A stretch of DNA of 64,000 bases. Source: Escherichia coli (lineage in GTDB: Bacteria; Pseudomonadota; Gammaproteobacteria; Enterobacterales; Enterobacteriaceae). Location of the stretch: the NCBI RefSeq assembly GCF_044647545.1, contig NZ_CP172818.1, one strand, 5' to 3'. The position numbers were made by a program, and so were the translations under genes. How positions within the stretch are numbered: the stretch's first letter is position 1; every line of letters starts with the position of its first letter. Positions 17,450-31,055 of the stretch are shown piece after piece. Under the pieces are notes generated by a model. The model ran no database searches and was not told where the DNA came from. It saw nothing but the letters and a program-made list of their open reading frames with translations.

Positions 17450-18352
17450 TCAGAAGCTATCATTTAAACGATCTATGAATCGGGAGAAGACAAGGTTGTT
17501 CAACGAAGCCTTGTTATAGGAAATATAAAGTTTAACCGCAGGAAGAGGTTGTTCCAGTTTTATTTCTTTTAACTTCAAAAAGTCACGATGTAAATTGTAC
17601 AGTTCGGTGGGCACAATGCCTAATAAGTCAGTAACAGAAATACTATTAATTATAGTCATCAAAGAAGAACTGCGAAATGAAACTTTACGGTTCATAAAAC
17701 GTTCATCTATGTCCATTTGAATTTCGTCAATCCCTGCTGATTTAGATATCAACAGGGTGAATTCTTCGGCGATAATTTGTTCATAGTTACTGGTATCGGT
17801 AATACGAGGATGTTTGTTGCTACATATAAGAGAATTGCGAATAGTATGTAACGGCATGCAGATGACAGAGCGGCTAATTACTGGTTGTAGTGTAATTGCC
17901 AGGTCAGTTTTGCGTTGAACCAACAGTTCTTCGGCATTTTCAGCTGAAAGCAGTATGTCATGGCATTCTATATCGATTGAAGTATCTTGTCTAAGACAGC
18001 GGATTAGCATGTTGTTATTAGTACAAGAAATAAGCTGAGGACCGTAGATAATAAAATTTTTCTTTAGCTCAGACTTATTAACAATATTGATCGTTTGTTC
18101 AATGCCTCTGAGATTTTTCTCAAGATGATGATGCAGATTTAACCCTGTCGTAGTCGGCGCGATACCTTTCCCTGAACGAATGAATAACGGGTCATTAAAT
18201 TGCGCACGTAAACGTTGTAACGACTGACTAACAGCAGAGGGCGTTATATATAATGATTCTGCCGCTTTACTAATGCTGAGATGTTGATAAATACATTCAA
18301 ATATGACCAGTAAATTGAGGTCAAATTTTTTTAGATCATAAAGATTCGCCAT
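17450..18352 (-). CDS. ybdO: LysR-family transcriptional regulator
   Basis: 300 aa from ATG at 18352 (alternative upstream ATG at 18388); N-terminal HTH; markedly AT-rich coding sequence. Confidence 0.85.
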   Translation of the reverse strand: MANLYDLKKFDLNLLVIFECIYQHLSISKAAESLYITPSAVSQSLQRLRAQFNDPLFIRSGKGIAPTTTGLNLHHHLEKNLRGIEQTINIVNKSELKKNFIIYGPQLISCTNNNMLIRCLRQDTSIDIECHDILLSAENAEELLVQRKTDLAITLQPVISRSVICMPLHTIRNSLICSNKHPRITDTSNYEQIIAEEFTLLISKSAGIDEIQMDIDERFMNRKVSFRSSSLMTIINSISVTDLLGIVPTELYNLHRDFLKLKEIKLEQPLPAVKLYISYNKASLNNLVFSRFIDRLNDSF

Positions 18353-18556
18353 AACATACTCCGTTGTATTGTCTCTTCCATAAATCATTCACTTGATCAA
18401 TATTGTTGTTGTATTTATATGTGTTATGTTTTTCTGCTTAACTTTGGATTAAGATTTTCTAAAATAGCATAGCTGTCAGGTGGGTTACGAGCAATTCATG
18501 CTTTTTTAGGATGGTTGAAAAGCAGGAATATATTTCAACCATCCATAAATTATCTT

Positions 18557-19303
18557 TTATTTATTCCCCATAATGATATTAAGCGTTTTCTGATCGGGCA
18601 ACCCCACGGCCTGTTGCAGTGTATTTTCCTTACTCATGTAATAGATAGCTGGCGTGACATTTGCCCCCAGATCGTCCATCAGTTTCTCGTTATCGCTTAA
18701 CACTTTCATTTGCTCTGTACTTACGTTTGCAGGCACGTTTAGTTTAAGCTTGCCACCAGAGGCTTCATATTCTTGCCAGGTTTTTGCGGGATCTTTGGAG
18801 GCAAGAATTGCCGCTGCTGTCGCCGGGCTTTCTGGCTTGATAACGCCAACCAACAATGTTCTTAATTGCACTTTGCCAGAATCTACCCACGGGCGAGCCT
18901 GCTGCCAGAACTGTTTACAATATGGGCAGAACGGATCGGCGAAGACGTAGACAATGACCGGCGCGTCTTTTTTACCGTCGAGGAGCCAGTGGGATTGTTC
19001 CATCCGTTGCCACATTTCGCGTCCGGCGGGTGCGTAAATTTCTTTTTCGATAAGTGTGTTACTCAGGTTTTCACCTTTCTCGTTGTACATGTAACCGGAG
19101 ATAGCGTGCTTACCATCTGGAGTCAGGTAGATGGTGACGCCCATATCCTGATACTTGCCGAGATAACCTTTCATTCCTCCGGGAGCATCGAACGTTTTGA
19201 TGATTGTAATGCCCTGTTTTTCAATCGCTTTTACTGGGGCAGGAAGTTCCTCTGCGAAGGCGATTGCAGGAAGCAGAGCCAGTAAAAGTATCTTTTTTAA
19301 CAT
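18557..19303 (-). CDS. dsbG: Periplasmic thiol:disulfide interchange protein
   Basis: 248 aa from ATG at 19303; signal peptide [17 protein letters not shown]; thioredoxin CPYC motif. Confidence 0.92.
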
Positions 19304-19589
19304 TAATTTGTCCTTTTCAGTCAGTGCAAAAGTCGAGTAAAAGGCATAACCTATCACTGTCATAGGTAAGAGCTTAGATCAGGTGATTGCCCTTTGTTTA
19401 TGAGGGTGTTGTAATCCATGTCGTTGTTGCATTTGTAAGGGCAACACCTCAGCCTGCAGGCAGGCGCTGAAGATACCAAAGGGTAGTTCAGATTACACGG
19501 TCACCTGGAAAGGGGGCCATTTTACTTTTTATCGCCGCTGGCGGTGCAAAGTTCACAAAGTTGTCTTACGAAGGTTGTAAGGTAAAACT

Positions 19590-19640
19590 TATCGATTTGA
19601 TAATGGAAACGCATTAGCCGAATCGGCAAAAATTGGTTAC
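19590..19640. promoter_or_regulatory. Putative OxyR-controlled ahpC promoter region
   Basis: AT-rich segment (gataatggaaacgcattagccgaatcggcaaaaattggttacc) about 40-90 bp upstream of ahpC; ahpCF is a classical OxyR target; site boundaries approximate. Confidence 0.35.
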
Positions 19641-19674
19641 CTTACATCTCATCGAAAACACGGAGGAAGTATAG

Positions 19675-20238
19675 ATGTCCTTGATTAACACCAAAATTAA
19701 ACCTTTTAAAAACCAGGCATTCAAAAACGGCGAATTCATCGAAATCACCGAAAAAGATACCGAAGGCCGCTGGAGCGTCTTCTTCTTCTACCCGGCTGAC
19801 TTTACTTTCGTATGCCCGACCGAACTGGGTGACGTTGCTGACCATTACGAAGAACTGCAGAAACTGGGCGTAGACGTATACGCAGTATCTACCGATACTC
19901 ACTTCACCCACAAAGCATGGCACAGCAGCTCTGAAACCATCGCTAAAATCAAATATGCGATGATCGGCGACCCGACTGGCGCCCTGACCCGTAACTTCGA
20001 CAACATGCGTGAAGATGAAGGTCTGGCTGACCGTGCGACCTTCGTTGTTGACCCGCAGGGTATCATCCAGGCAATCGAAGTTACCGCTGAAGGCATTGGC
20101 CGTGACGCGTCTGACCTGCTGCGTAAAATCAAAGCAGCACAGTACGTAGCTTCTCACCCAGGTGAAGTTTGCCCGGCTAAATGGAAAGAAGGTGAAGCAA
20201 CTCTGGCTCCGTCTCTGGACCTGGTTGGTAAAATCTAA
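19675..20238 (+). CDS. ahpC: Alkyl hydroperoxide reductase, peroxiredoxin subunit
   Basis: 187 aa; peroxidatic Cys motif FTFVCPTE. Confidence 0.97.
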
Positions 20239-20255
20239 TCGCAATCGCGTAATTA

Positions 20256-20282
20256 ATCGGGTGCTGCGGCACCCGATTTTCT
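20256..20282 (+). terminator. Hairpin plus T-tract immediately after ahpC (partial terminator/attenuator before ahpF)
   Basis: atcgggtgc ... gcacccgat stem followed by ttttctt. Confidence 0.5.
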
Positions 20283-20363
20283 TCCCCGCACCATGATGCA
20301 AGCTGCATCCAGGTAGCCGCAGAGGCCGCTTGCATGATGATGTTTAAAGCCCAGGAGATAAAC

Positions 20364-29996: not shown

Positions 29997-31055
29997 TCAT
30001 GCGGGGGTCTTTTGACGAGCTGCCGCGTCCTGGCGGGAGTGCTCAAGCAGGTTCTGCAAATAATGCAGCGTGACTGCAGGGACCAGCGGCGCGATAGCCG
30101 TGAGATCGTTTTTCGCCAGCAGTTGACGTACCCGGGAAGCGGATATCGGCATCTCCTGGTAACGCAGCCGCTCAATTTCAACCAGTTCGATGGGCGGTGC
30201 GGAGATAGTCGGCGTTTCCAGCCAGTAGCGCATATCCTGGTTGTACTGGGCGGTAACGCGACAAAAGGGTTCAGTACCGACAAAGCGGTGAGTTACACCC
30301 AGCGCGGGAGCGAGGTACTGACGGAAAATCTTCAGATCAATTTCGGTGTAACAATGGTTAATGACGCTCTGTTCTTTAATGAAGTAGCAAGGGAACGTAG
30401 CGCGGGAGATGATGTATTCGGAGCCGCGATGCACAGTCAGGCGTGGAATATCGGCGGTGCCTTTTAACACCAGATCCAGCCGGTCTTCATAGGGGAAGCG
30501 TGAAGAATCTTCTTTGACTAAAAACAGATGCAACCAGTCGCACTGTGCCGCAGCCTGTTGAATCAGATAACGGTGACCATTCGTAAAGGGATTGGCGTTC
30601 ATCACAATGCAGCCAATCTTGTTCCCTGGATGACGAAATTTTTTCAGCGATTCGGCATAGCGTTTCAGTCGCGTGGCGCTGTTTTCCATCAGCACCATCA
30701 CGCCGGGTACGCTGGTCAGCGTGGAAAAACCGCACTGGCGGAACAGCGCCTCGTATTCGGTTTTGGTATAAATAAACAGATGCGTGCTGTGCCGCTCATA
30801 GGCGAGGTTTATCAATTCAGTGGCTAATGTCAGCGCCAGTCCTTCACCGCGAACGGATTCACTGATAGCAACGCATTTAATAATATTTCCGGCAATTCCA
30901 CCGCACGCGATAAGCTTTTCATCGCGGGTTACGGTAATAAATACTTCGACTGTGGTGTCAACGCTCAAATCATTTTCATGCAGGAATTGGGCGATTTCCG
31001 CCATTTTTTTATTTTCTGAACGTTTTACACGGGTGAAAATATCATTGCCGAACAT
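29997..31055 (-). CDS. citC: [Citrate (pro-3S)-lyase] ligase
   Basis: 352 aa from ATG at 31055 (ORF-track start 31142 is an extension); first gene of citCDEFXG-citT. Confidence 0.9.
   Translation of the reverse strand: MFGNDIFTRVKRSENKKMAEIAQFLHENDLSVDTTVEVFITVTRDEKLIACGGIAGNIIKCVAISESVRGEGLALTLATELINLAYERHSTHLFIYTKTEYEALFRQCGFSTLTSVPGVMVLMENSATRLKRYAESLKKFRHPGNKIGCIVMNANPFTNGHRYLIQQAAAQCDWLHLFLVKEDSSRFPYEDRLDLVLKGTADIPRLTVHRGSEYIISRATFPCYFIKEQSVINHCYTEIDLKIFRQYLAPALGVTHRFVGTEPFCRVTAQYNQDMRYWLETPTISAPPIELVEIERLRYQEMPISASRVRQLLAKNDLTAIAPLVPAVTLHYLQNLLEHSRQDAAARQKTPA

Follow-up and report, generated by a model that had tools for sequence, protein, structure and literature searches.

The window, by which we mean the whole stretch of 64,000 nucleotides analyzed here, is a segment of the Escherichia coli chromosome in which the divergent genes dsbG and ahpC are separated by 371 bp (19304-19674). 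The preliminary description had given this distance, and it is confirmed by the open reading frame list and by the RefSeq annotation of MG1655, where dsbG (637827-638573, minus strand) and ahpC (638945-639508, plus strand) also leave a gap of 371 bp (638574-638944). The two gaps differ by a single base, G in the window and A in MG1655 at 19466, so that experimental coordinates from K-12 can be transferred to the window (window = U00096.3 − 619270 = U00096.2 − 618493). The region is widespread in the species: a 571-bp query spanning the gap found matches in 5422 of 5426 complete E. coli genomes, and the gap segment is at least 99% identical in 5021 of the 5422. The dsbG reading frame can be extended by 60 nt to an ATG at 19363, which gives the 268-aa form of an older annotation. 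We rejected this start, as the extension is poorly conserved and interrupted by indels in the alignment with other genera, and therefore regard the 248-aa start at 19303 as the right one.

A DsbG scan with one genome per species yielded 70 loci. ahpC lies divergently beside dsbG in all Enterobacteriaceae loci of this survey; the exceptions are three truncated contigs and eight Pectobacterium loci, in which no ahpC was found adjoining dsbG. Across about 58 Enterobacteriaceae species the gap measures 350-440 bp in nearly all cases, with exceptions of 155, 261 and 325 bp, and its length is thus not due to chance. Alignments of 25 and of 60 unique Enterobacteriaceae gap sequences display conserved blocks with sharp edges and variable sequence between them, and in the larger alignment large parts of the gap show more conservation than a neutral spacer would (Table 1). 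The variable spacer that begins at 19533 carries up to about 45 extra nucleotides in Klebsiella and Raoultella. The conserved block GTTCACAAAGTTG downstream of it was considered as a CRP or ArcA half-site, but the pattern does not fit by eye. The positions of the OxyR sites, promoters P1 and P2, transcription start sites (TSSs) and RNA 3′ end, as well as the conservation and RNA structure described below, rest on sequence, conservation and published maps.

Table 1 Features of the dsbG-ahpC region, in window coordinates.
Feature	Position	Strand	Sequence or detail	Source
dsbG coding sequence, 248-aa form	18557-19303	-	left boundary of the region	open reading frame list, MG1655 annotation
Candidate constitutive dsbG promoter	19336-19363	-	ATGACA-16-TTTACT, under the distal OxyR site	RpoD SELEX table, PMC3946193
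Distal (dsbG-proximal) OxyR site	19340-19376		AAAG-N7-CTAT-N7-ATAG-N7-CTTA	13/16 consensus match; literature reports two sites
Conserved block	19350-19365		CCTAT-N7-ATAG	alignments of 25 and 60 gaps
Conserved block	19385-19392		GATTGCCC	alignments of 25 and 60 gaps
Promoter P2, for long ahpCF transcript and leader RNA	19387-19415	+	-35 TTGCCC (19387-19392), 17-nt spacer, extended -10 TGtTGTAAT (19407-19415)	
Conserved block	19407-19416		TGnTGTAATC	alignments of 25 and 60 gaps
P2 leader RNA	19423-19526	+	about 104 nt; orthologue of the Salmonella candidate sRNA STnc70	Rfam RF02069, mapped ends, covariation
Conserved paired segments	~19437 to 19529			alignments of 25 and 60 gaps
dsbG start and extended -10	19461-19478	-	TSS 19461, 158-nt leader; TGgTATCTT (19470-19478)	PMC3415461
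Intrinsic terminator of the leader	19499-19529	+	hairpin GGUCACCUGGAAAGGGGGCC (19499-19518), then AUUUUACUUUU; mapped 3′ end 19526	
Variable spacer with small hairpin, then conserved block	19533-19563		hairpin CGCCGCTGGCGG (19533-19544); block GTTCACAAAGTTG (19551-19563)	alignments
Weak promoter-like sequence inside the proximal OxyR site	19575-19604	+	TTGTAA-18-GATAAT	generic promoter scan
Conserved block, nearly invariant	19575-19619		45 bp	alignments of 25 and 60 gaps
Proximal (ahpC) OxyR site	19578-19614		TAAG-N7-TTAT-N7-ATAA-N7-GCAT	alignments; literature reports two sites
Promoter P1, main OxyR-dependent ahpC promoter	19615-19651	+	-35 TAGCCG (19615-19620), -10 TACCTT (19638-19643)	
Conserved block	19638-19643		TAnCTT	alignments of 25 and 60 gaps
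Conserved block	19651-19677		transcription start through ahpC ATG	alignments of 25 and 60 gaps
ahpC Shine-Dalgarno and start codon	19662-19677	+	GGAGG (19662-19666), start codon 19675-19677	invariant across genera
ahpC coding sequence	19675-20238	+		open reading frame list, MG1655 annotation

OxyR sites and ahpCF promoters

The preliminary description had proposed an OxyR-type operator shared by both directions, to be sought by a motif scan and in transcription start maps. We scanned the 64-kb window for ATAG-N7-CTAT-N7-ATAG-N7-CTAT, allowing up to 3 mismatches, and the scan was positive: the distal site agrees with 13 of the 16 consensus positions, where 0.1 matches per 64-kb window are expected by chance. 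Its center is some 55 bp away from the dsbG start codon. Its core, CCTAT-N7-ATAG, hardly varies among the 60 aligned sequences, with scores for individual species of 9-13 out of 16.

The second, proximal site emerged from the alignments. Its four elements are nearly invariant across the 60 Enterobacteriaceae sequences, and the invariant bases of the alignment coincide with these elements and their 11-bp spacing. The match to the consensus is 11/16 in most genera but only 10/16 in E. coli, too poor to pass a simple consensus scan. The centers of the two sites are 238 bp apart. The four-element spacing expected of an OxyR operator fits both, and both lie just upstream of the -35 element of the activated promoter: the proximal site occupies -73 to -37 relative to the P1 start (19651), and the distal site occupies -83 to -47 relative to the P2 start (19423), one helical turn further upstream. 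An 11-bp shift of the distal site would mimic the geometry seen at P1, but we rejected it, as the ATAG and CTAT elements would then change places.

These positions agree with a description from 2001. The abstract by Zheng and co-workers reportedly centers a new OxyR site 54 bp upstream of dsbG and, counted from the ahpC site, 238 bp upstream; both figures fit the distances measured here. The dsbG-proximal site is said there to induce a second ahpCF transcript, and the assignment of each OxyR site to its transcript follows this reported description. Earlier OxyR footprints at ahpC are said to come from the Ames and Storz laboratories.

In the simplest arrangement, one shared OxyR operator would drive both divergent genes, as at oxyR-oxyS, and the remainder of the 371 bp would be spacer. 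The proximal site would be the candidate. It is the most strongly conserved block of the gap, it reportedly induces dsbG as well as ahpC, and it is the only one of the two sites retained in a natural variant (L030) with a gap of 155 bp. Nevertheless, we consider a single operator highly improbable, as the better consensus match is the distal site, which, like the promoter that goes with it, is conserved in 59 of 60 sequences, and as the supposed spacer contains a structured RNA that is conserved, along with a mapped terminator. The literature likewise reports two sites. According to PMC6389858, which cites Zheng et al. 2001, OxyR activates ahpC and the divergent dsbG via two intergenic OxyR sites, and another paper confirms that OxyR binds the control region of dsbG. 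Binding of OxyR and induction by peroxide are taken here as reported in the literature. Hence the OxyR control foreseen in the preliminary description stands, on the motifs and on PMC6389858, while its single shared operator gives way to two sites.

The preliminary description had also suggested that a gap of this length leaves room for additional promoters, and published TSS maps indeed show P1, P2 and further starts, with ahpC starts at 19651 and 19423 and a dsbG start at 19461. The P1 start (638144 in U00096.2, window 19651) is the main ahpC start in two independent maps. It gives a 24-nt leader and is supported by 126 reads in PMC3415461; in Cappable-seq its relative read score is 362. The TAnCTT of the -10 element and the A at the TSS are invariant in both alignments. 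The -35 element is a poor match that follows directly on the proximal OxyR site, which is typical of an activator-dependent promoter. A minor plus-strand TSS at 638104 (U00096.2; window 19611) has a Cappable-seq relative read score of 10.6, and its position fits the promoter-like TTGTAA-18-GATAAT within the proximal OxyR site. That sequence was the one promoter-like site returned by a generic promoter and terminator scan, which returned no terminator; the scan misses P1, P2 and the mapped terminator described below and was not used as negative evidence.

P2 is well formed in sequence. A -35 TTGnnn and TGnT[G/C]TAAT occur at an exact spacing of 17 nt in 59 of the 60 unique sequences, and an RpoD genomic SELEX table lists TTGCCC-17-TGTAAT as a constitutive ahpCF promoter of this spacer (PMC3946193). 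A Cappable-seq TSS on the plus strand (637916 in U00096.2, window 19423) lies 7 nt after the -10 hexamer. P2 thus has what is expected of a sigma-70 extended -10 promoter: TGn adjoins the -10 hexamer, the -35 stands 17 nt away, and the TSS falls within the usual 6-8 nt downstream. In unstressed cells it is weak, with a relative read score of 4.2 versus 362 for P1 (Cappable-seq). The same data contain many minor plus-strand starts within the gap, so the start at 19423 would by itself be weak evidence. A leader peptide was also considered. Its sole candidate start, an ATG at 19418 opening six codons, lies upstream of the TSS and is missing in other genera, and was rejected.

A terminator-ended leader RNA of the STnc70 family

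A leader structure, which the preliminary description had thought the gap long enough to hold, is present downstream of P2 as a structured RNA of the STnc70 family that ends at an intrinsic terminator, as evidenced by Rfam, Term-seq and covariation. The Rfam model RF02069 (STnc70) matches 19437-19530 on the plus strand with 44.1 bits against a gathering score of 40. It also matches in 14 of 20 other genera with 44-186 bits, always on the ahpC strand; Salmonella scores 186 and the others 44-80. Further Rfam matches (plastid UTRs, rncO, mir-204 and a snoRNA) fell below gathering and were set aside as chance. In Salmonella Typhimurium, STnc70 was predicted as a candidate between dsbG and ahpC in the orientation <- -> -> (Sittka et al. 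2008, Table S3), and the window copy has the same genomic context and strand as this founding locus.

The 3′ end of the RNA has been mapped. Term-seq places an end at 638796 in U00096.3 (window 19526) under all three growth conditions with about 1800 reads, and assigns it a Rho score of 0.27 (‘No’) and an intrinsic-terminator score of 5.17, well over the value of 3 above which termination is predicted to be intrinsic (PMC7815308 supplements). This end lies 8 nt beyond the terminator stem, inside AUUUUACUUUU. The site therefore has the marks of an intrinsic terminator, a G+C-rich hairpin with a U-tract directly after it and an RNA 3′ end in the tract, and in the 56-sequence alignment the hairpin is conserved with compensatory changes. 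The E. coli stem contains a mismatch. The generic scanner missed this terminator because stem and T-tract are interrupted. The 5′ end (Cappable-seq) and the 3′ end (Term-seq) of the E. coli RNA stem from separate experiments, and our literature search found no Northern showing it as a discrete small RNA.

Folded from the P2 start onward, the E. coli leader forms four hairpins, H1 (19425-19446), H2 (19452-19465), H3 (19467-19491) and H4 (19499-19518). RNAalifold on 56 sequences recovered H2, H3 and the terminator. In the proposed structure 96.9% of cells are paired, compared with 31-51% in slid controls, and seven pairs (44 cells) carry compensatory changes versus 1-4 pairs (at most 8 cells) in the controls; none of 500 column shuffles reached the observed values. 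Measured against shuffled sequences, the fold is clearly favored in Citrobacter (z = -3.8), Klebsiella (-4.4) and Kosakonia (-3.0). The E. coli leader, with its shortened H1 and imperfect terminator stem, is only marginally better than its shuffles (z = -1.4). Between H1 and H2 lies the nearly invariant GAGCGCAACAC, which is unpaired in the consensus and in most genera and paired within H1 in E. coli.

Since the dsbG promoter occupies part of the same block, the conservation might in principle serve the opposite strand, namely the dsbG promoter and the beginning of its 5′ UTR, with the hairpins as by-products. The dsbG TSS at 19461 and its -10 element, which together lie inside H2 and H3, would fit. 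The base pairs point the other way: 138 cells hold G·U pairs on the plus strand, versus 7 A·C cells, which would read as G·U on the opposite strand, and the paired share is 96.9% for the plus and 86.1% for the minus strand. This asymmetry indicates that the fold was selected on the ahpC-sense RNA and not on the dsbG leader. In addition, a T-tract follows the hairpin on the plus strand only, the mapped 3′ end is on that strand as well, and the extended -10 TGg of the dsbG start shows no conservation outside Escherichia in the alignment. Conservation for the sake of dsbG is accordingly very unlikely.

Two natural variants bear on what the RNA does. L030 lacks the leader RNA altogether, and L031 keeps P2 without hairpins and terminator. 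One possible if doubtful reading is that the terminator is a mere insulator, which would keep basal P2 or stray plus-strand transcription off the proximal OxyR site and P1, the RNA itself having no function. P2 is of the constitutive type and lies upstream of a much stronger regulated promoter, and the 3′ end is present in unstressed cells under all three conditions, as such a role would imply. Insulation does not need H1-H3 or the stretch between H1 and H2, yet these are conserved with covariation, and L031 has P2 without any terminator.

Alternatively, the central block could be a free-standing gene for a trans-acting sRNA, STnc70, inducible by OxyR via the distal site and linked to ahpC merely by position. 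The RNA has its own promoter and terminator with mapped 5′ and 3′ ends, Rfam classes STnc70 as an sRNA, and conservation exceeds what a terminator needs, including GAGCGCAACAC, which is left unpaired in other genera. We nonetheless regard a trans-acting gene as unlikely. GAGCGCAACAC is sequestered in H1 in E. coli, and both natural variants lack the RNA but have ahpC control elements. A long ahpCF transcript from P2 has reportedly been observed, which implies read-through into the operon. Hfq enrichment is absent in Salmonella, with 5 reads in the control and 7 in the Hfq co-immunoprecipitation and a Northern column marked ‘np’ (Sittka et al. 2008, Table S3). Our literature search found no target or discussion of such an sRNA and no study of the STnc70-family leader RNA.

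dsbG transcription and the proposed two-module control region

The dsbG TSS at 19461 corresponds to 637954 in U00096.2 on the minus strand and is supported by 25 reads (PMC3415461). A second, candidate constitutive dsbG promoter listed by RpoD SELEX has hexamers that are not conserved in other genera and is apparently specific to E. coli. The start at 19461 faces P2, so that the P2 and dsbG transcripts overlap over 19423-19461. It lies 135 bp from the center of the proximal OxyR site, which is too distant for simple activation of this start.

The literature is clear on the OxyR- and H2O2-dependent response of ahpC. Reports on the effect of OxyR on dsbG conflict, with activation stated in PMC6389858 and, in other work, possible repression and no change at sublethal H2O2. 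As the dsbG leader runs across both P2 and the distal OxyR site, dsbG may be influenced by OxyR bound there and by transcription from P2. Such interference with the dsbG transcript could, in this model, reconcile the conflicting reports.

Overall, the region is very probably the classical OxyR-controlled dsbG-ahpCF control region, built from two tandem promoter modules. In the first, the proximal OxyR site abuts the weak -35 of P1, and H2O2-oxidized OxyR bound there would recruit RNA polymerase and yield abundant ahpCF mRNA with the 24-nt leader that starts at 19651. In the second, the distal site would act upstream of P2, a well-formed extended -10 promoter with basal activity and a start at 19423. 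Transcription from P2 would produce the four-hairpin leader. We infer that part of it stops at the intrinsic terminator, freeing the STnc70-type RNA of about 104 nt, and that the rest reads through to give a second ahpCF mRNA with a long leader. dsbG would be transcribed leftwards from 19461 and possibly also from the E. coli-specific promoter under the distal OxyR site, with a leader that would cross P2 and the distal site, run antisense to the P2 RNA over its first 39 nt and thereby possibly affect dsbG output.

Neither the OxyR control of this region nor the RNA family is new (Zheng et al. 2001; Rfam RF02069): ahpCF belongs to the core of the OxyR regulon, and the mapping of the dsbG-ahpC OxyR sites dates from 2001. 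The value of the locus here is that of a positive control, in which a real regulatory hub proved detectable by reading the sequence alone. The STnc70-family leader, with mapped ends, covariation across genera and a head-on position to the dsbG promoter, could bear on the discordant dsbG data. With low probability, the RNA at 19423-19526 is a second OxyR-controlled regulatory RNA of enterobacteria, whether attenuator, cis-antisense or trans-acting. As an attenuator, the leader could set how much P2 transcription reaches ahpCF. As an antisense or trans-acting RNA, it could use its first 39 nt, which are complementary to the 5′ end of dsbG mRNA, or the near-invariant GAGCGCAACAC that it carries. 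If so, a regulatory leader RNA would couple cytoplasmic peroxide scavenging to the expression of periplasmic DsbG.

One known parallel is oxyR-oxyS, where an OxyR site drives a structured short RNA in a divergent region; that RNA, OxyS, is an independent sRNA that binds Hfq and has known targets. The window likewise has a divergent gene pair and an OxyR site upstream of a promoter that yields a short, structured, terminator-ended RNA. Unlike OxyS, this RNA is the 5′ part of an mRNA leader and is not Hfq-enriched in the Salmonella data. It also resembles the 5′ UTR termination products found by Term-seq (Adams et al. 2021, PMC7815308), where the 638796 end is catalogued as an ‘upstream ORF’ 3′ end and predicted to be intrinsic; ahpC is absent from the main text of that study, and this end was not followed up there. 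The ahpC-associated motif PBC-28-3 is unrelated and was set aside.

Compared with the K-12 dsbG-ahpCF region (Zheng et al. 2001), the window has the same locus, the same 371-bp gap, two OxyR sites and the P1 start. In the linker that joins H2 to H3 it has G where K-12 has A (19466), and it is without the ERIC-like insert that K-12 has between ahpC and ahpF. With Salmonella STnc70 (RF02069) the window shares the flanking genes, the strand, H2-H4 and the terminator. The E. coli copy differs by its shortened H1 and weaker terminator stem, and the 59-nt insert in the H2 loop is present only in the Salmonella copy and in neither E. coli nor the other copies. The Rfam STnc70 model leaves out H1, as it begins 14 nt further downstream than the 5′ end mapped in E. 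coli.

Variants of the STnc70 leader and of the dsbG-ahpC gap

Cross-genus alignment together with the Rfam comparison revealed a 59-nt insertion in the H2 loop of the STnc70 leader RNA that is found only in Salmonella. It is carried by the loci of Salmonella enterica arizonae (L017, 2204-2352, minus strand) and Salmonella enterica diarizonae (L018), and it holds a hairpin of its own, TTGCAGAC...GTCTGCAA. In all other genera compared the RNA has a short form of ~93 nt. At the Escherichia albertii locus (L059), which scores under the Rfam gathering score for STnc70, the leader hairpin is followed by a degraded U-tract (CCCTGGTTGCTTTT). The leader terminator may be weakened in this species.

Two Enterobacter loci are natural deletion variants of the gap between dsbG and ahpC. 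Enterobacter sp. ENT03 (L030, 2346-2500) has a 155-bp gap in which only the proximal OxyR site and the main ahpC promoter P1 are present. The 261-bp gap of Enterobacter sp. kpr-6 (L031, 2240-2500) has kept the distal OxyR site and the upstream promoter P2 and has lost the leader hairpins and the terminator.

Further elements in and around the gap

Alignments showed that the short block that precedes the proximal OxyR site, downstream of the leader terminator, is conserved in most genera; inspection by eye gave no obvious CRP or ArcA pattern in it. Cappable-seq places a plus-strand start at U00096.2 637852, equivalent to window position 19359 (relative read score 15.8). This start falls inside the distal OxyR site, and a search for a good promoter to serve it found none. 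Scanning the window with the four-element OxyR consensus yielded a second 13/16 match at 30776-30812 on the plus strand, which may be due to chance.

Coordinates of the additional features in the window
Feature	Position	Strand	Remarks
Conserved block GTTCACAAAGTTG	19551-19563		Between leader terminator and proximal OxyR site
ahpC-ahpF spacer	20239-20363		125 bp
Hairpin, GGGTGCTGCGGCACCC then ATTTTCTT	20258-20285		Directly 3' of ahpC
LysR-type regulator ORF	17450-18388	minus	Directly downstream of dsbG

The ahpC-ahpF spacer and the gene downstream of dsbG

The spacer between ahpC and ahpF measures 244 bp in MG1655 as opposed to 125 bp in the window strain. Compared by eye with the consensus, the extra K-12 sequence of ~119 bp resembles an ERIC/IRU repeat. 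The hairpin behind ahpC corresponds to strong 3' ends in K-12 Term-seq data at 639668/639670 (PMC7815308) and therefore probably acts as an attenuator or a terminator between ahpC and ahpF.

On the other side, the LysR-type ORF is annotated as citR/ybdO in K-12, and its transcription start site has been mapped within the 3' end of dsbG (PMC3415461).
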